Assembly: GCA_025060975.1 (NCBI GenBank)
Contig: JANZKA010000001.1
Coordinates: 28,607-92,606 of the forward strand
DNA: 64,000 nucleotides
Direction: 5' to 3'
DNA from: Candidatus Culexarchaeum nevadense
Lineage (GTDB): Archaea > Thermoproteota > Methanomethylicia > Culexarchaeales > Culexarchaeaceae
Shown here: piece after piece, positions 6,842 through 22,254 of the stretch
Layout of the letters: the number at the start of each line of letters is the position of its first letter
How positions within the stretch are numbered: the first letter of the stretch is position 1
Notes under the pieces: model-generated
The model's database searches: none
Told to the model about the DNA's origin: nothing
The model's input: only the letters and a program-made list of their open reading frames with translations
Made by a program: the position numbers and the translations under genes

Positions 6842-8998
6842 ATGAAGAAGATTAAGATAAGAGAGCTATCAATACCTAAAATAATAAAGGATATATTGGA
6901 AAACAATGGGATAGATGAACTTTACCCACCACAAGAGCAAGCTGTGAGGAATGGGTTACTTGAGGGAAGAAACATAGTAATAGCTATACCTACAGCTGCA
7001 GGGAAGACACTTGCAGCAGAACTAGCAATAACAAAAAGATTACTTGAAGAAGGAGGAAAAGCAATATATTTAACACCATTAAAAGCTCTTGCCTCGGAAA
7101 AGTACGAGGAATTTAAAAAATATGAATATGCTGGATTAAAAGTTGCCATAAGCACTGGAGACTACGACAATCCAGAACCACAACTCAAAAACTACAATAT
7201 AATAGTCATGACAAACGAAAAAGCAGACAGCATTCTAAGAAATAAACCTCAATGGATGAGTGAAGTCAAAGTGGTAGTAGCAGACGAAATACACCTAATA
7301 AATGATAATGACAGAGGACCAACCCTAGAAGTAGTCTTAGCAAAACTCTTATCAACAAATTCACAATTGCAAGTTATAGGTTTAAGTGCAACAATAATGA
7401 ATGCAGAAGAGATAGCTGAATGGTTAAATGCTAGACTCGTAAAAAGTCATTGGAGACCAGTACCATTAAGAAAAGGAATCTACGTGAATGGAAGAATAAT
7501 ATACGATGATGAAAACATAGTAGAGGTTACAAAAGAGAAAATAGATCCATGCCAAGCATTAACGAGACAAACCCTAGAAGATGGAGGCCAAGTATTAATC
7601 TTCACAAACACAAGAAACGATTCAAGAGAAACAGCCTTCAAACTAATACCACTAACATCAAAATACTTAAAAACAGACGACAAAAAGGAACTCTTAAACG
7701 TAGCCAACGAAATACTATCATCAGAAGAAAGCACAAGAATAAGTGAAGAATTAGCCACATGCATTAAAAATGGAATCGCATTTCACCATGCAGGATTATC
7801 AGCAACCCATAGAAATATAGTTGAAAAGGCATTTAAGGAATCCAAAATAAAGGTTATATGTGCAACCCCCACCTTAGCCGCAGGAGTAAATCTCCCAGCA
7901 AGAAGAGTGATAGTAAAGAGTTATTATAGATATGATAGTTCAACTGGATATCAAATGATACCAACATTCGAATACCATCAAATGGCTGGGAGAGCTGGAA
8001 GACCAAAATATGATGAATATGGAGACGCAATACTAATAGCCAAAAACCTCCAAGAACAAGAGTTCTTAATGGAAAACTATGTAAAGGCACCACCAGAAAA
8101 GATATGGTCTAGACTAGCATCAGAATCAGCATTAAGATCACATACACTTGCAATAATAACCACAGAATTTGCAAAGAATGAAGAGGAAGTCATGGAATTT
8201 ATAAGACGAACGTTCTATTACAAACAATATGGTGAAGAAAGACAAATAAGAAATGTACTGAGAAGAATAATGAAGTTCCTAGTGGAAAATGAGATGATTA
8301 AAGTTATTGATGAAAAAGTATACCCAACGAAGCTTGGAATAAGAGTATCACAACTATATATAGATCCACTATCAGCCATACGAATCATAAATGGACTAAA
8401 GGGAAAGAATAGTGCAAGTGAACTCGCATATATACACTTAATATGTATGACCCCAGACATGCAGAGACTACACCTTACTAGGAAAGATAGAAAGATATTA
8501 ATGCCGAAATTATTAGAACTTGAAGGAAAACTACTCGTAAATGTAAAAGAATTCACAGACGAATTCGAACAGCTAACAATGCTACAAGCACTTAAAACTG
8601 CCATGATGCTGAATGAATGGATAAATGAGGAAAAGGAAGATGTAATCATAGAAAAATATGATGTAGGACCTGGAGACATATACTCGATAGCACTTACAGC
8701 ACAATGGCTAATGTACTCAGCCACAGAAATAAGCAAATTAATGGGATTCATAAATCACTTACAAAAACTAACTGAGCTAACTAGCAGATTAGAATATGGA
8801 TGTAAACCAGAACTATTGGAACTAATAAGTTTAAAGGGTATAGGAAGAGTTAGAGCTAGACTACTTTATAGAGCAGGGTATAAAACCATAGAAGATCTAA
8901 AAAAGGCGCGTATAGAAGACTTGAGGAAAATACCATTATTCGGAGAAGAAACCATAAGGAAAATAAAGGAACAACTGGAAGAGGAAAGGCTACATTGA
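6842..8998 (+). CDS. hel308: Ski2-like DNA helicase Hel308/Hjm
   Basis: Motif I AIPTAAGKTLAAELA, DEIH box (ADEIH), motif VI HQMAGRAGR. About 720 aa with a C-terminal HhH-like tail. Starts 6 nt after the mcm stop. Confidence 0.85.
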   Translation: MKKIKIRELSIPKIIKDILENNGIDELYPPQEQAVRNGLLEGRNIVIAIPTAAGKTLAAELAITKRLLEEGGKAIYLTPLKALASEKYEEFKKYEYAGLKVAISTGDYDNPEPQLKNYNIIVMTNEKADSILRNKPQWMSEVKVVVADEIHLINDNDRGPTLEVVLAKLLSTNSQLQVIGLSATIMNAEEIAEWLNARLVKSHWRPVPLRKGIYVNGRIIYDDENIVEVTKEKIDPCQALTRQTLEDGGQVLIFTNTRNDSRETAFKLIPLTSKYLKTDDKKELLNVANEILSSEESTRISEELATCIKNGIAFHHAGLSATHRNIVEKAFKESKIKVICATPTLAAGVNLPARRVIVKSYYRYDSSTGYQMIPTFEYHQMAGRAGRPKYDEYGDAILIAKNLQEQEFLMENYVKAPPEKIWSRLASESALRSHTLAIITTEFAKNEEEVMEFIRRTFYYKQYGEERQIRNVLRRIMKFLVENEMIKVIDEKVYPTKLGIRVSQLYIDPLSAIRIINGLKGKNSASELAYIHLICMTPDMQRLHLTRKDRKILMPKLLELEGKLLVNVKEFTDEFEQLTMLQALKTAMMLNEWINEEKEDVIIEKYDVGPGDIYSIALTAQWLMYSATEISKLMGFINHLQKLTELTSRLEYGCKPELLELISLKGIGRVRARLLYRAGYKTIEDLKKARIEDLRKIPLFGEETIRKIKEQLEEERLH

Positions 8999-9008
8999 AA
9001 ACAAATAT

Positions 9009-9467
9009 TCAAAATAATTGCAAACAAACAATAATCTTTCCATCAACATTTGAAATATAAACAAATAGGAATTCACGTGACAAATTAACGTTAGAATTTA
9101 CATAACACACATCAATCAAGTATGGAAGACTCAACTTAAACTCACCTTGATCACAACATAATATCAAAGAATTCTGAAATATGGAAAGTCTATATCCAAT
9201 AAATCTAGTTGGAACAGATAATTTAATGCAAATACTGGAATTCAAACCTAAAATTCTGCAAATTTCAACTCCGTAAACTATGGACTCCTTAATACTATAC
9301 ATGAAAGAATGATAGACTCTATCATCATTAAGAATATTGAAATAAAAACCACTCATGGACATTAAAAGTAACAATATAGAAAGGATTAAGCCAAAATTGA
9401 GTATAGAGTTGGAAATGACGTTTCTCATATTTATCCACCAATCACATTGACCGATATTATAATACAA
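9009..9467 (-). CDS. Small membrane/pilin-like protein (last gene of the filament operon)
   Basis: N-terminal hydrophobic helix (ISNSILNFGLILSILLLLMS), beta-rich remainder. A likely internal start at MRNVIS would remove the overlap with the upstream gene. Confidence 0.3.
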   Translation of the reverse strand: MYYNIGQCDWWINMRNVISNSILNFGLILSILLLLMSMSGFYFNILNDDRVYHSFMYSIKESIVYGVEICRILGLNSSICIKLSVPTRFIGYRLSIFQNSLILCCDQGEFKLSLPYLIDVCYVNSNVNLSREFLFVYISNVDGKIIVCLQLF

Positions 9468-10105
9468 TTAAGTATCAATGGATTGACTCTACTTGAATTA
9501 AAAGACCAAATAAATGAGCATGTTGGACTATACAATTGCATATATGAGATTTTGGGGTTAGTAGGGCTATAGAACCTCTTTACAATATTAATGTATGGAA
9601 AGAAAGAATATTTCCCACATGATATCTTCAATGAACTATTAATATTGAACAATACAGCCCCAATCAATACTGAGTTACCATTAAAAACTATTCTCGGATG
9701 AATACTAAGGATCAACATACTCCCATTTGCTATTATCGAATAAGAGAAGTAAGTCCTATTACCTTCTTCAATTATTACATTCCCGTATGGATATAAGGAG
9801 CTGCGATAAACATACCTCAAGTTAATGGAGAAAGAAGACAACAGAGTTTCGTTATCAAAATTTATAATCTGGAAGCCGTTAATGTAAAACTCCAATACAC
9901 CATACTTTAAAGAAAAGGTGTGTACCACCATTTTACCAGATTCAATACCATCAACAAGCTTATAGAAAAATGATTTTACATCATTAATTTCAGCGAGCAT
10001 TAACACGTAGGTATTGTAGGAAGTATAAAACTGTAAGCAAACCGAACCAACTAATAGTATTAGCCCAACCAGAATAACTGATGAAGGTATCTCCGTAGAT
10101 GTCAT
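9431..10105 (-). CDS. Pilin-like/membrane-anchored protein (no canonical class III motif)
   Basis: N-terminal hydrophobic segment SSVILVGLILLVGSV. 224 aa. Start is 3 nt after the stop of the preceding gene. N-x-S/T sequons. Confidence 0.3.
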   Translation of the reverse strand: MTSTEIPSSVILVGLILLVGSVCLQFYTSYNTYVLMLAEINDVKSFFYKLVDGIESGKMVVHTFSLKYGVLEFYINGFQIINFDNETLLSSFSINLRYVYRSSLYPYGNVIIEEGNRTYFSYSIIANGSMLILSIHPRIVFNGNSVLIGAVLFNINSSLKISCGKYSFFPYINIVKRFYSPTNPKISYMQLYSPTCSFIWSFNSSRVNPLILNCIIISVNVIGG

Positions 10106-10776
10106 ATGGGCATCACATCCACAGAAATAACCTCAAAAACCAATATAACAGGACCACTTGATGTAATAATCGTTGAATAATGATCATTACTAGAAATTAG
10201 TGATATTTTAAGCTGACCAGCACACTCAAACGTGTAAATAGACTTAAATGAATCACTAACTCTCAAAACAAAGTTTCCACTGATGATACCAGAACTTTTC
10301 AAAACCATTAATCTCAAATAGATTCTGGAACCTAAATTATACACTGAAAGTGCTGGTATTAGATGTATATGATCACCATGCCCATATATTGAAAAACAAG
10401 TACCATTAAGTTGAATGGGTTGATCATAGTATATATTCGGAGAAGAAGCATAAACCTGTATGCTTAAAATTGACGATTTAAAATTCCCTAAGCATATATC
10501 GTTAACGATGATTGTTATATTGCAACAATCATCCAATTTAATAATGTAATGTGGATTGAATATCATAATTGAATCATCGATGAAATATAGTTTATCAGCC
10601 TCTAACCTCACATATCTCAAGAAGTCCACTGCATTATCAGACCTTAAACCACATTCCAAATTCCTCAAGTACATCATTCCATATTGAAGGCAAATGAAAG
10701 ATAGTGAGATAAAAACCATGAACATAATCACATTAGATAAAATATTGGAAATACCTCTAGAATTTAAATTGCCCAA
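10102..10776 (-). CDS. Class III signal peptide (prepilin-like) protein
   Basis: N-terminus MGNLNSRG|ISNILSNVIMFMVFISL: a short charged leader, then RG, then a hydrophobic helix, as in archaeal PibD substrates. 224 aa. Confidence 0.45.
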   Translation of the reverse strand: MGNLNSRGISNILSNVIMFMVFISLSFICLQYGMMYLRNLECGLRSDNAVDFLRYVRLEADKLYFIDDSIMIFNPHYIIKLDDCCNITIIVNDICLGNFKSSILSIQVYASSPNIYYDQPIQLNGTCFSIYGHGDHIHLIPALSVYNLGSRIYLRLMVLKSSGIISGNFVLRVSDSFKSIYTFECAGQLKISLISSNDHYSTIITSSGPVILVFEVISVDVMPI

Positions 10777-11422
10777 TGCATTTCACCCCTCTCCAATCAA
10801 TTACACTAAATATAAAAGTATGCACATTCAACGGGATTATAAAACGAATAACGTAATGCCCATTCATTAAACTCTTAGAATCTGGATAAAAAGTGAAAGT
10901 ACTCCCATTATAGATGTATGAAACCATGAATGTTGGCGGTTTAAGTAGAGCTTCAGAATCACCGAAAACCTCAACTACCATCTCAACATCATTAAATGTT
11001 GGAACATACGAATTTGAAGTTGTTATATTAACTATTTTAAAGCCTAAACAACAATTATAACTAAACGTATACCTACACCTATATTTGAAATCATATACTT
11101 GTAACGTGACTGAGGCTCCAACATACCCATCTTTTAAAATAACAGTATATGATGACAATTCAACTATTAATGGGTAAACATTCATAATGTCATGTAAATT
11201 TAGATTTAAACGATCAGTGAATTCTCCACCATTAATGCGATGCACCAATGCATCGCATATCAACCTTTTAAATATCAAATTTAAAGCTTGAATATAGCTA
11301 GATGGAACATCAATGTCTATTCTGTAATATGGGGTTAGATAAATTAATTGATAAATTAAGGAGATGTATAATACTGCAAACAGTATTAATATTTGTCCTC
11401 TACACCCAAACTTGCAGAACAA
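10757..11422 (-). CDS. Class III signal peptide (prepilin-like) protein
   Basis: N-terminus MFCKFGCRG|QILILFAVLYISLIYQLIYL. 221 aa. Confidence 0.4.
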   Translation of the reverse strand: MFCKFGCRGQILILFAVLYISLIYQLIYLTPYYRIDIDVPSSYIQALNLIFKRLICDALVHRINGGEFTDRLNLNLHDIMNVYPLIVELSSYTVILKDGYVGASVTLQVYDFKYRCRYTFSYNCCLGFKIVNITTSNSYVPTFNDVEMVVEVFGDSEALLKPPTFMVSYIYNGSTFTFYPDSKSLMNGHYVIRFIIPLNVHTFIFSVIDWRGVKCIGQFKF

Positions 11423-11804
11423 TTATTCTAGTCACCCCCCTCAACTTCAAGACAAATGGTGCACTAACCATGGAATTAAATATCTTGAAATTGGAAATGT
11501 ACGAGAATAATAAGTTATGATTCTCATCATATACTAGTAAGTTGAAGCTCAATTCTTGTGGTATGAGAAGTTTAATGTAATTCACTAATAAATCCCAATC
11601 CCCATTATAGGCGATTACACTTAAATCCCCATTAGAATCAAGTGTGTATAAAATGTTAAATGCTATGGAATGAAGATGGGAATTATCTACGGTATAATCA
11701 TATACTATCATGGGGATTGTTATGGTGGAATACGCTATTATCATCATTGCGATGAGAACTTCAATTATTCTTGAAAAACCACGATAAGCCATATCCACCA
11801 CCAA
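11400..11804 (-). CDS. Type IV pilin-like protein (class III signal peptide)
   Basis: N-terminus MVVDMAYRG|FSRIIEVLIAMMIIAYSTITIPMIVY. 134 aa, a typical pilin size. Confidence 0.5.
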   Translation of the reverse strand: MVVDMAYRGFSRIIEVLIAMMIIAYSTITIPMIVYDYTVDNSHLHSIAFNILYTLDSNGDLSVIAYNGDWDLLVNYIKLLIPQELSFNLLVYDENHNLLFSYISNFKIFNSMVSAPFVLKLRGVTRIIVLQVWV

Positions 11805-11813
11805 TCTACTAAA

Positions 11814-13121
11814 TCATAAATTGTTAAGTCCCGGTAAACCAGAATTACACATGCAAGTACCACTATTCTTAACCCTAATTTTACATAGCAATGAATGGTA
11901 TGCATCAACTTTGAGAAAACTATAAGTAGAATCACCTTCATTTAGAAAGCCTATTGAAACATTCAATTCTGGAATAAAGGCAACGTAAAATACTCCATTA
12001 AATGTGTAGATCATAACGTAAGGAGGACTTACATTTGGCATCGTATTCACATTAATACTCTTATCAAACCAGAGCAACCAAACTTTATCAACATTAAAAC
12101 ATGGTATATATGAGCTATGATGAGACGATGACACAATATTGTTTAACTTCAAAATGAAAGGATGAGTCCATCCACCAAGATAGATATACACATTCCCACT
12201 TGAACTTAGTTTCAGAAAGAATCTCACATTACTTCCATGAAATTCCTTCAGTAGGGGTATGTGGAAGGTAAAACTCTTAACACAACTGGAATTGATTGTG
12301 AAGAAGAAATCGGCTAAAACCATAGAATCACTGCAATTAGATCCACAAATTCCAAAAACCATATGGAGACTTCCAAAACCACTGGCAAAAAATGAGAGCT
12401 CTAAGGAGTCATTGGAAATGCTGATTGAATTTTTAAAAACTCTACTGTAAAACGAGGTTCCATTATCATTAAGTAATATGACTGAAGAGGCTCCAAAAAT
12501 ACTATCAACAATATAGTATCCACCACCAAGATTGGACAAATAGAATTGCGTTGGTCGTGCAATCATGTAACTCATTTGGAAATCTCCATATAAACCGATA
12601 CCAAACAATTGCCCATGCCTAACAAATACAACCACCAATTGAGGCTTGTACTTCAATGAAATACTTCCAAAACCATTATCCAAGTTTATATAGTAATAAT
12701 CGGTTAAGGTTCCATTACTAAATATATAAACGAAGGCTTCTCTACCACAAGATTTCATATTAACGATATCGAGGGATCTTATAATCACAGACTCACCAGT
12801 AAAGTACACTTTAACATCTAGGGATGGTGATATTTGGATGGAGAATACGTGATCTTCCATGTTAATGGTCTTCTTCAAATACTCATAGTCTAAGTAATAG
12901 CCGAAAACTTGTGAGTAAATGGGGGATAAAGCTTGAAGAGTGAATGGATCAATCCTCCCCTCAGGAGCTATTGAGTATAGTAGGCGATTGACTATTACAT
13001 CATTAGAGTATGTTGTAAAATGAAAGTATCTTTGTGCAGTGGAACTCAATATGCTTGCACTAGATGATAATAGTAAGAAGATCATGAATCCAGCGAAAAC
13101 ATATTCTACAACTTCTTCCAT
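11814..13121 (-). CDS. Membrane-anchored secreted protein of the filament locus
   Basis: N-terminal hydrophobic segment FAGFMIFLLLSSSASILS. 435 aa, beta-rich, multiple N-x-S/T sequons. No recognisable catalytic motif. Confidence 0.35.
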   Translation of the reverse strand: MEEVVEYVFAGFMIFLLLSSSASILSSTAQRYFHFTTYSNDVIVNRLLYSIAPEGRIDPFTLQALSPIYSQVFGYYLDYEYLKKTINMEDHVFSIQISPSLDVKVYFTGESVIIRSLDIVNMKSCGREAFVYIFSNGTLTDYYYINLDNGFGSISLKYKPQLVVVFVRHGQLFGIGLYGDFQMSYMIARPTQFYLSNLGGGYYIVDSIFGASSVILLNDNGTSFYSRVFKNSISISNDSLELSFFASGFGSLHMVFGICGSNCSDSMVLADFFFTINSSCVKSFTFHIPLLKEFHGSNVRFFLKLSSSGNVYIYLGGWTHPFILKLNNIVSSSHHSSYIPCFNVDKVWLLWFDKSINVNTMPNVSPPYVMIYTFNGVFYVAFIPELNVSIGFLNEGDSTYSFLKVDAYHSLLCKIRVKNSGTCMCNSGLPGLNNL

Positions 13122-16100
13122 GAATAATCACCATCAATCCACAATCCCTCAAAAACTTCATATCCAAATGCGTAAACAGTAAGCACTATTTTATGAATTC
13201 TCCTTGGAAGAGAGAATGTATAGAATTTTATGGATCCATGAGTTAATGTTATGGTGATGGATGATGAGTAGAAGAGTTCATCAAATTCGTCGTAAAACAT
13301 CACATTCAGTGTACAATTGAAATCCATGAAGCTCGATTTTGAAGTTAAAGTGAAATTAGCAAATCTCCCCTCAACATTAACATATAACAGCACACCAATG
13401 TTTTCATTCCAGCATAAATCGCATAGTTCATCTAGTCTGGAAACCCACGTATTACTAATGTCTCTGCAAAGTAACTTGATTGTAAAGTTTTTGTAAAAGG
13501 GTATTCTGAAAGTCATAGAAGCAACTCCATCTTCATCAGTTTTATAATTAAGTTTGGTGATAACAGTATCATTACAATAAACCATTAACAGCAGCTCTAG
13601 ATGTGCTGGATCACCATTGGAATAATAGAATTTAAAGTTGATATTGAAAGATAAATCTTTTACCAAAAATCTTAGGATATCACATTGTATACGTTTAAAT
13701 GGAATAACAACATATGATAAACTTGAATTCGTAGATCTGATAGTGAATGGGGAGTTAACATAGTATACGAAGAACTTAAGTGAATCATTAAAGTTAATGG
13801 GGGGAGCAATAAACTTTGCGTTTCCAAAATCATCAATTGGAGAACTCCTAAAATATCCATATGTGGAGTTCAAGACAAGTTGAAGAGCCCCCCCTCTAAA
13901 CCTTAAACTCTCATTGTTGAGACTCCAAGTTAAATGGAATAATATTTCATTGCAACTATAATCATTATTTACAATATAATACACTTTTAATCCGTCAACA
14001 TAAAATCTATTTCTACCTACAATACGTCCAGAATCATCTGAAAGTAGGATTTCATAGGATCCTAAGGGGCAATTTATACCATTTAAATAAACTATGAGTT
14101 TACATAACCCATCTTCATCAGTTGATACTGGTATGAGTGAAACGTTAAAATCGCCGAAAACGGCATTTGGAAGAATCAACGTGAGATTCCTCAGAGGCTG
14201 ATATTTAATTATAATCCCCATGGCTTCATATGGTAGAAATCTATACTCTGAATACCAATAGCCATACATCCAGTTGACATAATATAATTCGATGGAAGCA
14301 AGTCGCCTAATTTCAATGGAAAATGTGCACGAATCATTATGTGAACTGGAGAATGCATGTAATTTAAAGTTGAATATTCCAGTTAAATTTGATAATGGAA
14401 TTACACGTAACTCAACGATTTCCACAGGATTTGAATCTGATATGTAAACTGGGTTTCTAGAAAAATTATATCTGAAGAAATCCGAGTAGCTTGCATTACA
14501 TAAAACTTCGAGAGAAACATAACCGCTGAACCCATTAACGGAAGTTAAACTAACATAAAACAGTGCATCTTCACCTTCAAGAATAGATATAAATGTTGGA
14601 TATATGGAAACGTTGAAGTATCGCCCTTGCTTAACTTCCAATTTAAATGGATTACTATAAACTATCAACCCATTATGATCAACACCCTTTACTATCAGAT
14701 CATACACTCCCTCAATAGAAGAAGGAGAAGCATAAATTTCGAGGACTACACTTTTTTCATAGGAATCGATGAACAATGGATTAATGGAAAAATTATATAA
14801 ACAGTTTGGAGGATTACCCTCAACACTTAATGTGATTACACCACTATAACCATTAATTGGAGTTAAAGTTACATTGTAGAGTACACGAGACCCTTTAAAG
14901 ACGCTATTAAAAGTTGGGTTAACGGTAATTGAATATGAGGGAGCCACATAACTTTCAACGTTCAGTAATATCTTTCTACTCTGACCATCGGAACCTACGG
15001 CCAAGATTTCAATGAAGCAATCCCCAATATCATAAGATGTGAAGTCTATGTGAAACTGGAATGGAGGAATACCTCTAGTCTCACCCACCACGTTGTAACT
15101 AAGCCAACTTGGGACAGATCCTATTGTAACCTGCACAGGGAGTTCATAGCCATATAGATCGCCAACATATACGTCAATCCCCCTTGCAGAACCCAATGGT
15201 ATTCGAATACAATTATAGGAGGAACTTAAGGAGAAGGATGGTATTGTTAAATTAAAATCCTTTGAAGAAGGAAGATAGCTACTATCCCCTTCAAAAACAA
15301 TTCTTAAAATTCTCTTACCAAATTGTATATCACTTGGGATAACATATAAAAACGTAAAGGAGCCATCAGAATCGGTATGATTCGATGATATATACATGGA
15401 ATCCATATACAAATCGATTTTCGCATTCGAAATACCGTTACCGCGACTATTTATCAAGCGTCCACTTAAATATATTAGGTCTCCAATATACCCTTTAGAT
15501 GCACTTATAGAGCCAACAATGTATGAGTTCTCAAAATAGCCTATAGACAATGTTATTCGTAAACCATAACTCCCACTATAGAAGTCTGCAAAGGAATATG
15601 CGTAATCCTCTAAAGCTCCAGTAGCTATACTTCTAACAACCATTATAACTGAGAAGTCAAGCCTATCACCACTAAAAACATTTAAATCCAGATCTTGATA
15701 AACAGAAACATATTGATCACTAAAAACATATTGATCTTCACCTGAATAATAGAGGGTAAGAGTTTTTGAAGCCAAAGTAACTCTATAATTCATGAAGTCC
15801 ACATAAACCTCAATGCTAGCTTCAGCTGAAAATGTATTAGGGAGACATATGGATTTAACGTATAGTTTACCCATAAGTGTATATTTAATCGATAACTTCT
15901 TGATAACACCACTAAATGGTGAAATAAGGTAACCTTTAAAGGTGAGGGTTAAATCAGCTTCATTCAATAAGGATCCTATATTCTTCGTGGCAGAACATAT
16001 AGCTTTAAGTAAACCTCGATTCTTATCATAACTATAAGTGAAACTTCCAGTACCACAAGTATAGTAGAAAGGTTGAAATTCATTGAATGGTGGAGCAAGG

Positions 16101-16234
16101 GGGTAATATAGGATGCAATTAGAGTTTGGGAGCAAAAGTAACAATAATAGTGAAATCATTAATGGTAGGAGTAGCATCCTTCTTCTTACCATAACCTTGC
16201 ACCACCATAAATTCCAAGGATGCAAATGTAGCAA
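13106..16234 (-). CDS. Large secreted multi-domain surface protein (carboxypeptidase-regulatory-like / Ig-like repeats), putative adhesin
   Basis: 1042 aa. Signal-like segment RRRMLLLPLMISLLLLLLLP; the probable true start is the internal Met near 16192. Motifs GRLINSRGNGISNAKIDLY...TDSDGSFTF and KTDEDGVASMTF resemble prealbumin-like CarboxypepD_reg folds. Internally repeated ~80-aa units (NGYSGVITLSVEGNPP...FSINP / NGFSGYVSLEVL...FSRNP). About 20 N-x-S/T sequons. Confidence 0.5.
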   Translation of the reverse strand: MLHLHPWNLWWCKVMVRRRMLLLPLMISLLLLLLLPNSNCILYYPLAPPFNEFQPFYYTCGTGSFTYSYDKNRGLLKAICSATKNIGSLLNEADLTLTFKGYLISPFSGVIKKLSIKYTLMGKLYVKSICLPNTFSAEASIEVYVDFMNYRVTLASKTLTLYYSGEDQYVFSDQYVSVYQDLDLNVFSGDRLDFSVIMVVRSIATGALEDYAYSFADFYSGSYGLRITLSIGYFENSYIVGSISASKGYIGDLIYLSGRLINSRGNGISNAKIDLYMDSMYISSNHTDSDGSFTFLYVIPSDIQFGKRILRIVFEGDSSYLPSSKDFNLTIPSFSLSSSYNCIRIPLGSARGIDVYVGDLYGYELPVQVTIGSVPSWLSYNVVGETRGIPPFQFHIDFTSYDIGDCFIEILAVGSDGQSRKILLNVESYVAPSYSITVNPTFNSVFKGSRVLYNVTLTPINGYSGVITLSVEGNPPNCLYNFSINPLFIDSYEKSVVLEIYASPSSIEGVYDLIVKGVDHNGLIVYSNPFKLEVKQGRYFNVSIYPTFISILEGEDALFYVSLTSVNGFSGYVSLEVLCNASYSDFFRYNFSRNPVYISDSNPVEIVELRVIPLSNLTGIFNFKLHAFSSSHNDSCTFSIEIRRLASIELYYVNWMYGYWYSEYRFLPYEAMGIIIKYQPLRNLTLILPNAVFGDFNVSLIPVSTDEDGLCKLIVYLNGINCPLGSYEILLSDDSGRIVGRNRFYVDGLKVYYIVNNDYSCNEILFHLTWSLNNESLRFRGGALQLVLNSTYGYFRSSPIDDFGNAKFIAPPINFNDSLKFFVYYVNSPFTIRSTNSSLSYVVIPFKRIQCDILRFLVKDLSFNINFKFYYSNGDPAHLELLLMVYCNDTVITKLNYKTDEDGVASMTFRIPFYKNFTIKLLCRDISNTWVSRLDELCDLCWNENIGVLLYVNVEGRFANFTLTSKSSFMDFNCTLNVMFYDEFDELFYSSSITITLTHGSIKFYTFSLPRRIHKIVLTVYAFGYEVFEGLWIDGDYSWKKL

Positions 16235-17874
16235 GATACCAATGCATGCTTAAAACCTGCAAAGATAGTTCCACCAGAAATTTTCCCTACAAGTATGCCT
16301 ATGAAGAATGAAGTTAAAATTATCATAGAATTTATGGTTGAATTTAACTCAATAATCACACTTTTATCAACATTGAAGAAGATAATCTGACTCGGAATAG
16401 AATATCCAAATTCAAAAAAGCTAAGGAACCCAATTAACTGGTAAGAGACAAATATGAGCATGAGTGAAGAGAAGTATCCCACCAAAATATAGAGTTTCAA
16501 TTCATTTTCAACTCTACGCTTAAATTCATTGTACTCCCAACAGAACTTTGAAAGATGTGAGAAAATTTCAGATCTTCCACCACCAGTAGATACAGCTTCC
16601 CCAAAAAGCCAAAATATCCTCTTGGCAAACCATGAATTAACCCTAGAAATAATATCATTGAATATATCTGATATAGACTTCATGGATGACGTCAAGGAAA
16701 GGTTTATACTACGAATAATATCATCTAAAGCTTTACCATAAGATCTGCTAGAGGCAAGTATTAAAGCATTCTCGACACTTAAACCAACCTTAATATAATC
16801 GGATATATCCCTAATGAATTTTGAAAGACCAGAATCTATGACTCTACATTTAATAACATTGTATTCGTGAAAAATACTTAAAGGAGCCAATAAAACCGTA
16901 GAAGAAATTGTGAAAAGAAGTGGAAAGCTCACACCTAAATTCAAGAGTATAAGTAACGTTATGAAGAAAGAAGGGATCGAGAAGAGCAATACCCGCTTAT
17001 AATTACTAAACCTAAATGGAAATTTCAATTGACTGTAATCGATTATAATGAAGATGGAAAATGCTATTAGTGGAGTGAAAATAAAAGCATAAAGTTTTAG
17101 GAATAACAATGCATTTAATGGATTCATAATCATAAATATGCCAATTAAGCCGAGTGGGAGAAATAGGAATAGTGTTACTATGAGATCGCCAAATACGTTC
17201 ACATCACTAGCGAAATTCTTAAGCTTATTTGAAAACCGCTCACCCAATTTAAGCGTGTAATCCATTAAAGAAGAAGATGGATAACCACCACTCTCAACAG
17301 ACCTAATATATGAATCAAGATAATCCCTGAAATCTTTACATGGATGATTGTAAGCTAAGAACTTAATTGATTGCATGGGATCTTTACTAAAAAACTTATA
17401 ATCAGTAAAGAAGACTTCACTTTCAAACTTAAACCATGGAAAAACGTTTTGTGAAGATAATCTTTCAAACCCTCTAAATAGAGGCACATGAGATAAACTC
17501 AACATACTAAAATAAGTTGATATGAAAGGAAGTTCGGATTCAACACCACTAACACGTAAGGATATTCTAACCCTAGGATAAAAATGAAAAACTAAAAATA
17601 CGAATAATGCACATAAAGGTGGCAATACAAGGAAGAGAAATGAAGAAAACAAAATCAGAAGAAGAATAGATGCAATTGTGGATGCTGGTAAAACTATGAG
17701 TAAAAGGTAGAATAGGAAAATCGAACAGTACCCTTGAGGACTTATCTTTAAACCAGAACGAACTATAATTTCACTTAAATTAAGCTTATGAGAAATAGTA
17801 TTTGCAAAATTACCAAAAAGTCTATATGCTATAGAAATTGGAAAAACTTGAACACTCTTACCTTTCCAAAGCAA
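16186..17874 (-). CDS. FlaJ/TadC/PilC-type polytopic membrane platform protein of a type IV filament system
   Basis: 562 aa. Two hydrophobic blocks, each followed by a cytoplasmic helical domain (a duplicated T2SS-F-like organisation). Immediately downstream of, and overlapping, the secretion ATPase gene. Confidence 0.7.
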   Translation of the reverse strand: MLWKGKSVQVFPISIAYRLFGNFANTISHKLNLSEIIVRSGLKISPQGYCSIFLFYLLLIVLPASTIASILLLILFSSFLFLVLPPLCALFVFLVFHFYPRVRISLRVSGVESELPFISTYFSMLSLSHVPLFRGFERLSSQNVFPWFKFESEVFFTDYKFFSKDPMQSIKFLAYNHPCKDFRDYLDSYIRSVESGGYPSSSLMDYTLKLGERFSNKLKNFASDVNVFGDLIVTLFLFLPLGLIGIFMIMNPLNALLFLKLYAFIFTPLIAFSIFIIIDYSQLKFPFRFSNYKRVLLFSIPSFFITLLILLNLGVSFPLLFTISSTVLLAPLSIFHEYNVIKCRVIDSGLSKFIRDISDYIKVGLSVENALILASSRSYGKALDDIIRSINLSLTSSMKSISDIFNDIISRVNSWFAKRIFWLFGEAVSTGGGRSEIFSHLSKFCWEYNEFKRRVENELKLYILVGYFSSLMLIFVSYQLIGFLSFFEFGYSIPSQIIFFNVDKSVIIELNSTINSMIILTSFFIGILVGKISGGTIFAGFKHALVSCYICILGIYGGARLW

Positions 17875-19441
17875 TCCTAATCACCTCAGACCCCCTTGAA
17901 TAATAGAAAAGTTTAAGATGATCGATGAAATCATCATATTCACGTATACCATGAGCATGTAGATCTTCCAGAAACTGCAACCTAATTTTCAACTCATGTG
18001 AAATATCATTTATCGAAACCCCCTTCTCCTCAGCGATCTGTCTTAGAAGGAAACTTGAAGATAATAGTGAATCAACAGTGGACGGCGCAAAGATATCTCG
18101 GGATGGAACCCACTTGAAAACCTCAATATAATCGTCGGCTGATTTTATCTCATAAATACCAATAACCCTCCTCTTAACACTTCTTGCACCCTCAATCTTC
18201 TTCAATACGATGGCACAATTCATTAGTGGAATATATATTGGGGATACATTCATGGGCGGCGAAGATAAGCGCTTAATAGCGGAAATTATAGAATCAGCAT
18301 GCATCGTACACATACATCCATGCCCTGTAGCTGCAGCTTGAAATAACACATAAGCTTCTTCGCCACGAATTTCTCCAACCACAATATAGTCAGGTCTCTT
18401 ACGCATAGCTACCTTAACTAAATCGAATAGAGTAATCTCAAACTGCTTATCATCCATAAAGTATGCATGCCTAGCTACAAGTGGCTCCCAACCTTTAACT
18501 GGAATTTTAAGCTCAGGAACATCTTCAATGGAATCAACAGACCAATTTGGTTTAAACAATGCACTTAAAGCGGAAAGTAAAGTTGTCTTACCACTCGCAG
18601 TACCTCCAAGTACAAATATGTTCTTTCTATTTTCAATCAACAACCACAAATAGCAAGTCATGAGAGGACTTAAAGTTGAAAAATCATACGTTAAATGCAT
18701 AACGGTATAAGGTTTCTCTCTAAACTTCCTAATACAAATATTAGTGGATTTAGCACTAACTTCTCTCCCATAGCATATTGAAACTCTATGCTTATCAGGT
18801 AATATGGCATCAACTATTGGAAATGCTATTGAGACATGTTTACCACACATATGTGCAAGCTTAGAAGCCAGCGAATTTAATTCATATTCGTTTAAAACAA
18901 TGTTCGTTGTAAGCCAATCCAGATGCCCAAACCTCCTATGCCAAACCATAAATGGGATATTGGGACCTACACACTTAATATCCTCAATTTCCGAATCTTG
19001 AATTAACGGTTCAATATAACCATAACCCAAATCTCTAGCTATATAATATGCAACACGATTCAAACTCAATTCATAAAGATTTTTAAACCCATAATTCTCA
19101 GCCACCCTAAATATTTGCTCATGTATATAATTGAATAAATTAGTACCAGCCTCCAAAGCGGGAGGTATCTTTAATTCAAATCGCAATATCTTAGATAATT
19201 CCCTGTAAACTTTTAATTCCAGATCCATAAGCTCAGGTTCAAATACAATATATAATCCTTCACCATCATCATCTGCAATAACCACATTAACTTGATCATT
19301 ACAAACTTTATATGATGCAAGTATAGTTGCATTTATGGGAACTTTTGATCTAAAAATCTTAAAATCCATAGGATTCTCCAAATACGAAGACCCACGTTTG
19401 AAAAAACGTTTTAAGAACATTATTCGCGCATCCCCTCTCAT
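17858..19441 (-). CDS. Type II/IV secretion system ATPase (FlaI/VirB11/TadA family)
   Basis: Walker A VLGGTASGKTTLLSAL, Walker B/Asp box DYIVVGEIRGEEA, His box TGHGCMCTMHA. 527 aa with an N-terminal domain, as in FlaI. Confidence 0.85.
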   Translation of the reverse strand: MRGDARIMFLKRFFKRGSSYLENPMDFKIFRSKVPINATILASYKVCNDQVNVVIADDDGEGLYIVFEPELMDLELKVYRELSKILRFELKIPPALEAGTNLFNYIHEQIFRVAENYGFKNLYELSLNRVAYYIARDLGYGYIEPLIQDSEIEDIKCVGPNIPFMVWHRRFGHLDWLTTNIVLNEYELNSLASKLAHMCGKHVSIAFPIVDAILPDKHRVSICYGREVSAKSTNICIRKFREKPYTVMHLTYDFSTLSPLMTCYLWLLIENRKNIFVLGGTASGKTTLLSALSALFKPNWSVDSIEDVPELKIPVKGWEPLVARHAYFMDDKQFEITLFDLVKVAMRKRPDYIVVGEIRGEEAYVLFQAAATGHGCMCTMHADSIISAIKRLSSPPMNVSPIYIPLMNCAIVLKKIEGARSVKRRVIGIYEIKSADDYIEVFKWVPSRDIFAPSTVDSLLSSSFLLRQIAEEKGVSINDISHELKIRLQFLEDLHAHGIREYDDFIDHLKLFYYSRGSEVIRIALER

Positions 19442-19464
19442 CCAAAATTAGAGGGATAAACAAC

Positions 19465-19474
19465 ATATTTAAAA
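19465..19474 (-). promoter_or_regulatory. Putative BRE/TATA box for the filament-locus ATPase operon (leaderless transcript)
   Basis: The minus strand reads TTTTAAATAT, centred about 28 nt upstream of the ATG at 19441. Confidence 0.3.
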
Positions 19475-19552
19475 CCAAGATTTCATGCAACATAAACACT
19501 GGATTCTACAACAGCATTTTAATACCAAAAAATATAGCAAAAAGGTGAAAGT

Positions 19553-20554
19553 ATGTTCAAATCCAGTACAAAAGAATTATCAGAAAAGATCGATTGGATG
19601 ATGCAAATACTCAATGAGATAAATGTGAAAATAAATGATAACTCTAGCAGGATAATGAAACTTGAAGCAGAATTAAGAGGTATTCAATTAGATGAAATTG
19701 GTGAAAACATAAAAGCCATTAATGAAGGACTCTACAAAGTCAAAGAAGCAATGAATGAAGCTGGAAAAATGAGAGAGATAATATCTGCATTTAAAAACCT
19801 AAATGTGAAAGGAGAGTTTAAGGAGAATATAGATGAATTAAAGAAGAGCATTGAAGAAGTCATGCAGCAATTGCTACAAATAAAAAGCGAAGTATACTCA
19901 AACATAAAAGCATTAACAGACAAAATAAACAATATACAAACAATACATCAGGAAATCATGAAAAACATTATGAGTATAAAAGATTTAGAAGTAAACGCAT
20001 TAAAAAACATATCCACAATAACCATCATGCAAAAAGAAATAGGAGAAATGGAGGAAAATGTAAGGAAACTATTGGAGCACTACAAGGAAATTATAGATAA
20101 AACAGCATCAACAAAAATTGAATTAAACAAATTAATGAATGATATAGAAAGAAGAGATGAAGAAAGCAAAAGGAAATTGGAAGAAGTAACTATATACGAG
20201 GAAAAAATTAAGAAAAAAGAAGAAGAACTAATTGAAAGAGAGAAACTACTCACACAACTAATAAACGCATTAATTGAAAAAATAAAGGAATATGAAGAGA
20301 TAATGAAACTAACAAACTCAAGAATAACATACTTAAAAATTTTAGAAGAGAAAGGAAGAGAAATTGAAGGGAAAATTAAAGAATTAAAAGAGGAGAAAGA
20401 AAGATTGGAGAAAGAGGTCAATATTTTAATAAGAAGAAGAGATAACCTCGAAGAAGAGATATGCAAATTAAATGATATGAAAACTTGCATGGAGAAGAAT
20501 CTTAAAAGCATAATGGTGACAATGAAAGTTGAGCAATCCAGAACTAACATATAA
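19553..20554 (+). CDS. Coiled-coil protein (E/K-rich, no TM), divergent from the filament operon
   Basis: 333 aa, heptad-like E/K/L/I-rich sequence throughout. GGTGA Shine-Dalgarno-like motif 5 nt upstream of the ATG. Confidence 0.4.
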   Translation: MFKSSTKELSEKIDWMMQILNEINVKINDNSSRIMKLEAELRGIQLDEIGENIKAINEGLYKVKEAMNEAGKMREIISAFKNLNVKGEFKENIDELKKSIEEVMQQLLQIKSEVYSNIKALTDKINNIQTIHQEIMKNIMSIKDLEVNALKNISTITIMQKEIGEMEENVRKLLEHYKEIIDKTASTKIELNKLMNDIERRDEESKRKLEEVTIYEEKIKKKEEELIEREKLLTQLINALIEKIKEYEEIMKLTNSRITYLKILEEKGREIEGKIKELKEEKERLEKEVNILIRRRDNLEEEICKLNDMKTCMEKNLKSIMVTMKVEQSRTNI

Positions 20555-21254
20555 AATTATAAATCACTTGAAGGAAGAGTTATCAAGGGAAATTACGAGG
20601 GGAAGGTTAACATTCACTCCTAAAAGGATAAGCGTAAATATAGGTGAGAGAGGGAATATAAGGAAAATAAACGCTATTCTAAAGATGCTAGAAAGAGAGG
20701 GAGTAATAAAGTTCGATAAAAGAATGAAACGTTACTACATAGACGACGAAAATGCAAAGAAAATTGAAGATTACCTTATGAAAATTGAAGGAGCACTACT
20801 ATTAGAATACCATAAACCCTTAAGCAGCATAGAACCACCCATAAATGTATATAGAATAATTAAGGGGGAAAAGCAAAAGATAGCACAAGCAAAAAGGAAG
20901 AGTATAATGAAACCAATATACTATGTAAATTCCCCTGAGAAATACACGATAATATTCAGGACATATAAGATGCCAGGATTCACAATAAATAAAGGTGATG
21001 AAAAAATTTTCGAAGCATATAAACTAGGGTTCATGAAACCAATAAAAGCAATGTACAATGGAAAAGAAATGCTGATAAGAAGGAAATGGGGTAGAGAGAT
21101 CATAATAATAAGGGAAAATGAGAAAGAAATCGCTAAAATGAGGGGGTATGGAATTGAAAAAGCCATATTTACATATGAAGAAGCGTTAAGTGAAATTAGT
21201 ATACCAATATCAGTAGCATTATTTGCAATAAAACAATTTGATGTAATACTTTAA
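20529..21254 (+). CDS. Hypothetical protein with an N-terminal winged-helix-like segment
   Basis: 241 aa, basic. N-terminal RISVNIGERGNIRKINAILKMLEREGVIKF resembles a wHTH. Overlaps the upstream coiled-coil gene by 26 nt. Confidence 0.35.
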   Translation: MSNPELTYKIINHLKEELSREITRGRLTFTPKRISVNIGERGNIRKINAILKMLEREGVIKFDKRMKRYYIDDENAKKIEDYLMKIEGALLLEYHKPLSSIEPPINVYRIIKGEKQKIAQAKRKSIMKPIYYVNSPEKYTIIFRTYKMPGFTINKGDEKIFEAYKLGFMKPIKAMYNGKEMLIRRKWGREIIIIRENEKEIAKMRGYGIEKAIFTYEEALSEISIPISVALFAIKQFDVIL

Positions 21255-21334
21255 AATAAAAATATATGAAGATTAACTTAACATATGAGACTCCAATAAT
21301 TTATATTCACATAACCCATAAGATGAGGGGTTAA

Positions 21335-21850
21335 ATGAGTAATAGTAAAGGGATAAGTGCAATAATGGTCTCGATAATACTATTAGCAGTATCCATTGGA
21401 ATGGCAGTAGCCTACGCATCAACCATGATGGGATGGTTTGGAAGCGCTATGAACATAGTGAAAATAGATGCATCAGAATCTAAAATAATTCTAAACCCAT
21501 CCACAAATCAAACAAGGATACAAATAGTGCTAAGAAACATGGGAACTACAACAATAAAAGTGAGTAGCATCTCGATAGACACAGAAAAGGGGAAAGCAAT
21601 TATAAACTTTACAAAGAGTGATGTGAAAATATATATGCAAGATCAATCTCCATTTGATGGAGACGTATATGGATCTTCAAAGGATGTAACTATCTCTGAT
21701 AAGTACTTATTAATACCACAAGGTTGCACAGCAACTATATACTTTGAAATAATCTTACAAGAGCATGTATGGAAACTTGGAAACATATATAGGGCATTGG
21801 TATTCTATGATGGAGGAATGTTTGACTTTAAGATAAGCGTAGTGTATTAG
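21335..21850 (+). CDS. Archaeal type IV pilin-like protein (class III signal peptide)
   Basis: N-terminus MSNSKG|ISAIMVSIILLAVSIGMAVAYA, a canonical KG|IS PibD/FlaK-type site, followed by a beta-rich 140-aa domain with N-x-S/T sequons. GAGGGG 6 nt upstream of the ATG. Confidence 0.6.
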   Translation: MSNSKGISAIMVSIILLAVSIGMAVAYASTMMGWFGSAMNIVKIDASESKIILNPSTNQTRIQIVLRNMGTTTIKVSSISIDTEKGKAIINFTKSDVKIYMQDQSPFDGDVYGSSKDVTISDKYLLIPQGCTATIYFEIILQEHVWKLGNIYRALVFYDGGMFDFKISVVY

Positions 21851-21861
21851 AAAGACTAAAA

Positions 21862-22254
21862 TTAAAATTTAATTTTTTTCTCTACTTCAATTTTCCCACA
21901 AATTGTATCTAGAATTTCATTTAGAATTATTTTCAATTCTGTAAGAGATTCGTATATTATCATGTCCCTATGAAATAATTCATTTCCAATGGAATTTGAC
22001 TTCATGAAATCCACAAGCTCAGAAATTGCATTCTTTATATAGGCAACATTAATCTTAACTTCTTCCAATGAACTCTCTATTTTAAACAATTTTGCTAGTA
22101 TCTCTTTATCACCCAAATAAATCCCAAAATAAAAATCCCCCGTGAAATATTTCAAACCTCCACTAGGCGATACAAATTTAAAATTAAAAACATAAAATAT
22201 AACCCAAACATAATTATAAAGAAGTAATGTGGAGAAAGTTGCTCTAATATACAC
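21862..22254 (-). CDS. Hypothetical protein
   Basis: 130-aa ORF. The hydrophobic N-terminus may be spurious; the acidic helical C-terminal half could start at an internal codon. Confidence 0.2.
   Translation of the reverse strand: MYIRATFSTLLLYNYVWVIFYVFNFKFVSPSGGLKYFTGDFYFGIYLGDKEILAKLFKIESSLEEVKINVAYIKNAISELVDFMKSNSIGNELFHRDMIIYESLTELKIILNEILDTICGKIEVEKKIKF

Follow-up and report, generated by a model that had tools for sequence, protein, structure and literature searches.

A twelve-gene type IV pilus locus and its accessory proteins in Candidatus Culexarchaeum nevadense

Type IV pilus loci of complex composition have been described in several branches of the TACK archaea. In the census of Makarova, Koonin & Albers (2016, PMC4858521), the loci of Desulfurococcales clade 4A contain 3-4 untraceable extra components, and in those of Thermoproteales clades 4E and 4G, large proteins with signal peptides (labelled 'adhesin or minor pilin') occur alongside S-layer-like proteins, components rich in cysteine, additional proteins of the membrane and cytoplasm, and stand-alone PilA major pilins. 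An intracellular coiled-coil protein was noted in some halobacterial loci, and minor-pilin and adhesin or S-layer-like roles were proposed for proteins of the analogous TACK loci (PMC4858521). The current work analyzes a 12-gene type IV pilus locus, composed of nine operon genes and three divergent genes, in a 64-kb stretch of DNA from Candidatus Culexarchaeum nevadense, a hot-spring member of the class Culexarchaeia. This whole stretch is referred to as the window.

Comparison with described pilus systems

The Culexarchaeum locus holds as an archaeal type IV pilus locus distinct from the archaellum, Ups and bindosome assembly (Bas) systems and probably also from Aap. A PilB/FlaI-family ATPase, a T2SSF platform and pilins with class III signals, which characterize the type IV filament superfamily, are all encoded, and the locus fits the variable complex-pilus template of TACK archaea. 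It is not a new kind of machine. An earlier note on this DNA had suggested an undescribed surface-filament machine; the locus is indeed undescribed for its lineage, but its architecture is that of the known, variable TACK pili. The word applies in a narrow sense: the paper describing Culexarchaeia mentions neither pili nor archaella, and 8 accessory proteins match no Pfam or NCBIfam model. The features of the locus are as follows.

17858..19441, minus strand: FlaI/PilB-family secretion ATPase, 527 amino acids (aa), first operon gene (Pfam T2SSE, 6.6e-29)
16186..17874, minus strand: TadC/FlaJ-type polytopic platform, 562 aa (Pfam T2SSF, 1.5e-12, in two stretches)
13106..16234, minus strand: giant secreted protein (probable start ATG 16192, 1028 aa)
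11814..13121, minus strand: 435-aa protein with one N-terminal hydrophobic helix (MEEVVEYVFAGF...; transmembrane segment 8-26) and a beta-rich remainder
11400..11804, minus strand: s134, 134-aa minor-pilin candidate, class III-like site YRG↓FSRIIE (the arrow marks the predicted cleavage), Gly at -1 invariant
10757..11422, minus strand: s221, 221-aa minor-pilin candidate, class III-like site CRG↓QILILF, G9 and Q10 invariant
10102..10776, minus strand: s224a, 224-aa minor-pilin candidate, class III-like site SRG↓ISNIL, motif [RKN]G↓[ILV]S conserved
9431..10105, minus strand: s224b, 224-aa paralogue of s224a, MTSTE followed by a hydrophobic helix, no RG site (ratio of nonsynonymous to synonymous substitution rates, dN/dS, 0.12)
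9009..9428, minus strand: 139-aa protein with an N-terminal hydrophobic helix (MRN↓VISNSIL), last operon gene, start taken from orthologues
19442..19552, no strand: divergent promoter region with two conserved TATA-like boxes (alignment of 7 loci)
19553..20554, plus strand: cc333, 333-aa cytoplasmic coiled-coil protein, no transmembrane segment, E+K 31%
20529..21254, plus strand: 241-aa lineage-restricted protein, possible N-terminal winged helix, conserved hydrophobic C-terminus (38-74% identity)
21255..21334, plus strand: promoter and leader of the pilin gene itself, with a TATA-like box and a GAGGGG Shine-Dalgarno site (alignment of 7 loci)
21335..21850, plus strand: 171-aa PilA-family prepilin, probable major pilin, SKG↓ISAIMVSIILLAVS (NCBIfam UpsA 1.7e-9, below cut-off)
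21862..22116, minus strand: small helical open reading frame (ORF) of ~84 aa with a TTG start, beside the pilin gene, conserved in the terrestrial genus

An ORF scan of the window recovered all ORFs listed previously at their coordinates. The assembly genes run in one direction, as had been noted, forming a nine-gene operon on the minus strand (19441 down to 9009) in which neighboring genes overlap or abut at their stops and starts; GGTGA-type Shine-Dalgarno sites precede several of the internal genes. The 333-aa, 241-aa and 171-aa ORFs lie on the plus strand and are divergent from the operon.

The ATPase, platform and pilin were placed by NCBIfam equivalog cut-offs and, for the ATPase, by a neighbor-joining tree of unlabelled homologues. 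Only these three were matched in Pfam and NCBIfam scans of all locus ORFs. The ATPase scored 324.9 bits against FlaI (cut-off 550) and 291 bits against BasE (cut-off 1000). For the platform, 149.5 bits were obtained against UpsF (cut-off 400), 66.9 bits against BasF (cut-off 1300) and 36.2 bits against ArlJ (cut-off 550), and the pilin scored 37.9 bits against UpsA (cut-off 130). No archaellins, ArlH, ArlF/G, ArlX, ArlCDE, UpsX, AapX or sugar-binding proteins were detected among the locus ORFs by the same scans, which agrees with the absences listed in the earlier note; the distinctness that it proposed is likewise borne out, for the archaellum, Ups and Bas by scores below the NCBIfam cut-offs and generally by synteny with Culexarchaeia only; for Aap it is probable. 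The frame of comparison used there was Sulfolobales. The host is Culexarchaeum and does not belong to Sulfolobales, so a difference from Sulfolobales systems is expected and these negatives are unremarkable.

The closest likeness by description is to the complex TACK loci of the 2016 census. These share with the Culexarchaeum locus a FlaI-like ATPase with TadC, a PilA major pilin that often has its own transcription unit, predicted minor pilins that evolve fast and are specific to a lineage, a large protein with a signal peptide that is interpreted as adhesin or S-layer-like, further proteins of the membrane and cytoplasm (coiled-coil proteins among them) and many conserved cysteines. Unlike those loci, the Culexarchaeum locus has accessory proteins that match no Pfam or NCBIfam family, and it lacks MinD/FleN, KaiC and TFIIB partners; Culexarchaeia were described in 2022 and are outside that data set. 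The giant protein and the large set of minor pilins, previously regarded as unusual, have precedents in TACK archaea (PMC4858521).

Motor, platform and a PilA-type pilin are also shared with the Sulfolobales Aap and Ups pili, and the best labelled matches were UpsF, UpsA and AapB. The scores, however, are below the family cut-offs, and the Culexarchaeum locus has no AapX or UpsX; in particular, no iron-sulfur protein of the AapX type was found in the locus, and the match of the pilin profile to AapB is weak (E 0.07). Aap and Ups are systems of 4-5 genes in which neither a giant secreted protein nor a pilin-like set of six is present. The archaellum (ArlB, ArlI, ArlJ, ArlH, ArlF/G, ArlX) has a homologous ATPase and platform, but the equivalog thresholds are not reached, archaellins, ArlH, ArlF/G and ArlX are missing, and cc333 has no transmembrane anchor such as that of ArlX. 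The bindosome assembly system (BasEF, BasABC) resembles the locus in its type IV pilus-like motor, its several pilin-like proteins and its secreted protein (~500 aa in that system), but differs in that the BasE and BasF scores are far below the cut-offs and sugar-binding proteins are lacking here.

In bacteria, minor pilins and PilY1/PilC form an initiation and tip complex (PMC13533445). The likeness of the Culexarchaeum locus to the bacterial FimU-PilVWXE set with PilY1/PilC, and to the GspHIJK tip of the type II secretion system (T2SS), is a functional analogy of operon logic only (PMC13533445): several non-identical pilin-like proteins and a large Sec-exported non-pilin are encoded apart from the major pilin. 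No sequence or fold homology to these bacterial systems was found. Unlike PilY1/PilC, the giant protein is a chain of immunoglobulin-like (Ig-like) domains without a C-terminal beta-propeller, and the archaeal machine lacks PilMNOPQ and PilT of the bacterial type IVa pili.

Proteins encoded by the locus

The ATPase and the TadC platform form the assembly motor and, with the separately promoted pilin, make up an ordinary archaeal type IV pilus core; their earlier assignment to the FlaI and FlaJ/TadC types is confirmed by the Pfam matches and by 9 predicted transmembrane segments of the platform in a hydropathy scan. The best PDB matches of the ATPase were Archaeoglobus fulgidus GspE2 (2OAP, 253.8 bits) and Sulfolobus acidocaldarius FlaI (~215 bits), with E-values of 1e-62 to 1e-74. 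Identity with Culexarchaeia orthologues is 63-89%, whereas that with the next relatives is at most 46%. Close homologues came only from metagenome-assembled genomes labelled Candidatus Methanomethylicia, Verstraetearchaeota, Candidatus Culexarchaeum yellowstonense and Candidatus Culexmicrobium cathedralense.

The 171-aa protein starts with MSNSKG↓ISAIMVSIILLAVS and is assigned from its sequence to the PilA family of pilins. The divergent KG↓IS prepilin pointed out earlier was found again in its class III site, KG↓ISAIMVS, and the N-terminus is nearly invariant among orthologues. The best PDB match of its profile was 8Q30 (E 0.07, spanning the helix and the beta domain), which is AapB of the S. 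acidocaldarius Aap pilus. PilA-like homologues adjoin ATPases in 8 other metagenomic loci. Because it has its own promoter and is the most conserved non-motor gene of the locus (47-80% identity), the 171-aa pilin is likely to be the major subunit.

The operon of the motor also encodes six proteins with pilin-like helices at the N-terminus, 3 of which have a conserved G↓X class III site. These three are s134, s221 and s224a, in which RG class III signals had been noted and whose sites are conserved in orthologues. In s134, the Gly at -1 is invariant in 9/9 sequences from two clades (motif G↓FSRI[IL]E); homologues are present in the sister-clade loci L012 and L017 (E 1e-13 to 5e-15), and a related N-domain occurs in L016, a locus of the Bathyarchaeia type. 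In s221, G9 and Q10 are invariant in 9/9 sequences (motif [RK]G↓Q), with homologues in the sister clade (E 1e-9). Neither protein had a Pfam or PDB match in profile searches. The class III cleavage sites of these three proteins and of the 171-aa pilin are conserved across orthologues, and processing is predicted.

The remaining small proteins have no such site. The s224b protein begins directly with M-x-S-x-E, followed by the helix, and is paralogous to s224a (hhalign probability 86.7%, E 4e-6). A duplicated pilin family was considered and rejected, since s224a and s224b were the only related pair in an all-against-all hhalign comparison of the pilin-like proteins. The 139-aa protein probably starts at 9428, judging by its orthologues; it is conserved in Culexarchaeia (dN/dS 0.11) and has no glycine at -1.

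The 435-aa protein, previously listed as a membrane protein, does have one N-terminal hydrophobic helix, with a single transmembrane segment at residues 8-26 in the hydropathy scan. From its sequence, it is interpreted as large and pilin-like or bitopic rather than polytopic. It is 100% identical to MCS7368150.1 of Candidatus Culexarchaeum nevadense GBS-70-058 and has no Pfam or NCBIfam match. Its content of sequons and cysteines resembles that of secreted proteins, unlike that of cytoplasmic ones. An AlphaFold2 model consists of a helix at residues 2-37 followed by beta structure, with low confidence (predicted local distance difference test, pLDDT, 49.6), which is insufficient for fold searching. 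The N-terminal ~180 aa are conserved in sister-clade loci (E 4e-12). In the marine genus, the orthologue has 741-764 aa (L008:16272-18587, L009:16321-18636), and upstream of it the reading frame continues without a stop into what may be a leader with a terminal Gly (…LIG↓VEVVVEY). A leaderless protein is made in the terrestrial genus, where a stop codon precedes the Met by two codons.

A conserved acidic residue opens the hydrophobic helix in s134 (G↓FSRIIE), s224b (MTSTE) and the 435-aa protein (MEEVVEY), and the sister-clade counterpart of the last motif is HEAFEH. This position recalls Glu5 of bacterial pilins, and an acidic residue of this kind is missing from the major pilin.

The giant protein most likely starts at ATG 16192 and then begins with MVRRRMLLL, as in all of its orthologues. 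Its length is then 1028 aa rather than the 1042 aa given earlier, and the description as a secreted multi-domain protein stands. A Sec-type signal peptide is followed by ~10 beta-sandwich (Ig-like) domains, with many sequons and cysteines, and the AlphaFold2 model, built on an 11-sequence alignment, is all-beta with ~10 beta-sandwich domains (pLDDT 78.7). No enzymatic domain or beta-propeller was found in this model or by fold searches, which gave generic Ig-like matches only, including the S-layer protein SbsC. Full-length homologues were found only in Culexarchaeia. P0131 and P0132 were rejected as remote homologues, being repeat-domain matches only, in non-pilus contexts. The last ~15 residues of the giant protein (13106-13150), FEGxW(V/I)xG(D/E)(Y/F)SWK, are conserved in the terrestrial genus and not in the marine genus, and this tail could be a docking strand.

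On the cytoplasmic side, the coiled-coil protein cc333 is kept at an identical position in all Culexarchaeia loci, and only sub-threshold coiled-coil families were obtained for it in Pfam. For the 241-aa protein, the winged helix-turn-helix label given earlier, a conjecture drawn from the sequence pattern, was not verified, as no Pfam, NCBIfam or PDB profile matched. Only 5 clusters were found for it among 1.84 billion representatives, and thus no outside homologue is available from which a function could be borrowed. Its C-terminus carries a strongly conserved hydrophobic segment, IPLSxALFAIKQLDVII, which could be a membrane-binding helix; this would be odd for a plain transcription factor.

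Conservation and evolution of the locus

Synteny was examined in six distinct relatives: L001, L002 (identical to L003 and L006), L005, L007, L008 and L009 (identical to L004). The nine operon genes and three divergent genes are in identical order in 6/6 of these Culexarchaeia loci, and the locus is syntenic only with other Culexarchaeia. Identities to the window across these relatives are 63-89% for the ATPase, 47-80% for the 171-aa pilin, 38-74% for the 241-aa protein, 33-83% for the platform, 30-83% for the giant protein and 20-81% for the small proteins and the 435-aa protein. For 11/11 genes tested, dN/dS was 0.10-0.25 relative to the closest relative (89% identity), which points to purifying selection on all tested locus genes. 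The doubt raised in the earlier note, whether the small ORFs are real, is removed by these results: conservation in six distinct loci and dN/dS of 0.10-0.25 indicate that they are genuine genes.

In an alignment of 7 loci, TTTAAATA is invariant ~25 nt upstream of the ATPase start, and TAT(T/A)AAA is conserved on the cc333 side of the divergent promoter region. The location between hel308 and an HDAC-like gene was confirmed: HDAC and QRPTase flank the locus on one side and Hel308 on the other, an arrangement conserved in the terrestrial genus, and HSP20 replaces Hel308 in the marine genus. Other window ORFs that were tested are housekeeping genes. The GC content of the locus is that of the rest of the window; on this basis, and because of the conserved flanks and gene identities that track those of housekeeping neighbors, a mobile-element origin was rejected. 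The locus is a vertically inherited chromosomal locus and not an island.

The ~84-aa ORF between the pilin gene and HDAC has 45-83% identity among terrestrial Culexarchaeum loci, and an ORF of similar size is present at its position in the marine genus. In the ORF scan it appears as a 130-aa ORF (GTG at 22254), of which the part from TTG 22116 is conserved. Its membership in the pilus system is uncertain.

In a neighbor-joining tree of 35 ATPase representatives (100 bootstraps), the Culexarchaeia ATPases are monophyletic (100/100) and group with a small clade of P0015, P0016 and P0032 (82/100); both nest within a larger ATPase clade (100/100). The operon of this sister clade contains an ATPase, TadC, a homologue of the 435-aa N-domain (E 4e-12), homologues of s134 (5e-15) and s221 (1e-9) and a ~400-aa CarboxypepD_reg protein. 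The last was considered as a relative of the giant protein, and no relation was found. Since the 435-aa N-domain, s134 and s221 families follow ATPase-TadC in the same order in both clades, they are argued to be the motor's functional partners. Outside Culexarchaeia, none of the other accessory families was found.

The sister-clade pilus operon is divergently adjacent to CedA1-like and DUF87 (CedB-like) genes on three independent contigs (L012:1-9900, L017:2600-9900, L018:200-6850), and the gene order there indicates a physical linkage of a type IV pilus with a predicted Ced-like DNA-import system. A comparable linkage of Ups and Ced is not known from Sulfolobales. The CedA1-like cluster includes up to 4 CedA1-like (PF27251) membrane-protein paralogues and several unknown proteins of 300-560 aa, and in L012 it also includes a DUF87 (HerA/VirB4/CedB-like) ATPase.

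More distant loci were also compared. The Bathyarchaeia-type locus L016 encodes a 440-aa protein with an s134-like N-domain. In the same locus (6861-9845, 17320-19695), ATPase-TadC is accompanied by two large surface proteins, one of 994 aa with beta-helix/PKD and one of 791 aa of the discoidin (F5/8 type C) kind, which differ from the giant protein yet occupy the same operon position. P0095, of the wider clade, has a simple pilin-pilin-ATPase-TadC arrangement. In 80 further metagenomic ATPase loci searched with local hidden Markov models, the accessory families were absent save for one weak s134 match, and PilA-like pilins were common. The picture given by these comparisons is one of stepwise growth, in which a simple locus first acquired a module of three pilin-like proteins. 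Later additions, made in Culexarchaeia, were the giant protein, s224a and s224b, the last small protein, cc333 and the 241-aa protein.

Proposed function and alternative explanations

The best explanation, in which moderate confidence is placed, is that the locus encodes an archaeal (Tad/FlaI-like) type IV pilus, most likely an adhesive one with a complex of minor pilins and an adhesin. The 171-aa pilin would be cut after KG by a prepilin peptidase encoded elsewhere and polymerized into the shaft. The six helix-anchored proteins, three with a G↓X site and three leaderless, would assemble at the platform into an initiation or tip complex of low abundance. Export of the giant Ig-like protein would be by Sec, and this complex would carry or dock it as the adhesive element, in an arrangement analogous to bacterial minor pilins with PilY1 or to the T2SS tip complex. 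The coiled-coil and 241-aa proteins may act on the cytoplasmic side as scaffold or regulator, and the likely output would be surface or cell-cell adhesion.

Several observations weigh against this explanation. A prepilin peptidase (PibD/FlaK) was not found within the 64-kb window. No filament has been seen, Culexarchaeia being uncultured. The accessory proteins have no detectable homology to known pilins, PDB profile searches with s134 and s221 were empty, and comparison with the major pilin by hhalign gave probabilities of at most 5.9%. Three of the six pilin-like accessory proteins have no canonical G↓X site. For the 435-aa protein, the charge distribution gives no clear prediction of outside orientation, and the AlphaFold2 model is unreliable. 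The tip-complex role of the giant protein is drawn by analogy only, and it has no propeller like that of PilY1.

The same genes could instead encode a pseudopilus-type display or secretion device, in which a short piston or anchor positions the giant protein (and perhaps the 435-aa protein) in the envelope, as in T2SS or the bindosome. The translational coupling of the giant protein gene to the platform gene, the resemblance of its product to Ig chains of S-layers and envelopes such as SbsC, the many non-paralogous pilin-like proteins and the precedent of Bas as a type IV pilus-like machine that makes no filament all speak for such a device. It is nevertheless considered unlikely: a typical, well-conserved PilA-type pilin with its own promoter belongs to the conserved block, the BasE and BasF models score far below their cut-offs, substrate-binding proteins with class III signals are absent, and the giant protein, which has an ordinary Sec signal peptide, does not require a pilus motor to be exported. 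A further explanation treats the giant and 435-aa proteins as S-layer-like envelope proteins that merely share an operon with a simple pilus. S-layer-like proteins were noted inside type IV pilus loci by Makarova et al., and the fold matches include SbsC. This is quite improbable, however, because the two genes are third and fourth of nine in an operon whose start and stop codons overlap, they lack the strong promoter of their own that is expected for an abundant S-layer protein, and the N-domain of the 435-aa protein travels with the motor in the sister clade.

Different outputs of the filament were also weighed. A pilus for cell-cell aggregation and DNA exchange, functionally like Ups, would account for UpsF and UpsA as the best labelled matches of platform and pilin, and the homologous operon of the sister clade adjoins CedA1-like and DUF87 genes on three independent contigs. 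In the window, however, there are no Ced-like genes and the other tested ORFs are housekeeping genes; the UpsF and UpsA scores are far below the cut-offs, UpsX is missing, and the Hel308 flank, also present in relatives, is replaced by HSP20 in the marine genus. A DNA-exchange function is accordingly rated as a minor possibility. A degenerate or unusual archaellum for swimming is extremely improbable. FlaI is the best NCBIfam model for the ATPase at 324.9 bits, yet this is under the cut-off of 550, the platform reaches only 36 bits against ArlJ, no archaellin, ArlH, ArlF/G, ArlX or ArlCDE was detected, and the pilin is of the PilA type.

Beyond the preferred explanation of an adhesive pilus, a bolder proposal is offered tentatively and with little confidence. 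The six pilin-like proteins and the 1,028-aa Ig chain might be the archaeal counterpart of the bacterial minor-pilin/PilY1 complex, or else the machine might be a T2SS-like pseudopilus on which the giant protein is displayed. Either way, the assembly would have evolved independently in the clade formed by Culexarchaeia and the sister group, with a Ced-like importer linked to it in the latter.

No surface structures have been described for Culexarchaeia, a class without cultured members. The locus is the only pilus candidate seen here, and every sampled member of the class has kept it. Its practical impact will stay limited until a culture or a heterologous assay is available. Eight protein families without a Pfam or NCBIfam model are added to the parts list of archaeal pili, and the locus lends itself well to the question of how priming and tipping of archaeal pili come about, a subject on which understanding lags behind that of bacteria. 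The sharing of part of the accessory set with the sister clade offers a stepwise view of how a simple pilin-ATPase-TadC locus became complex.

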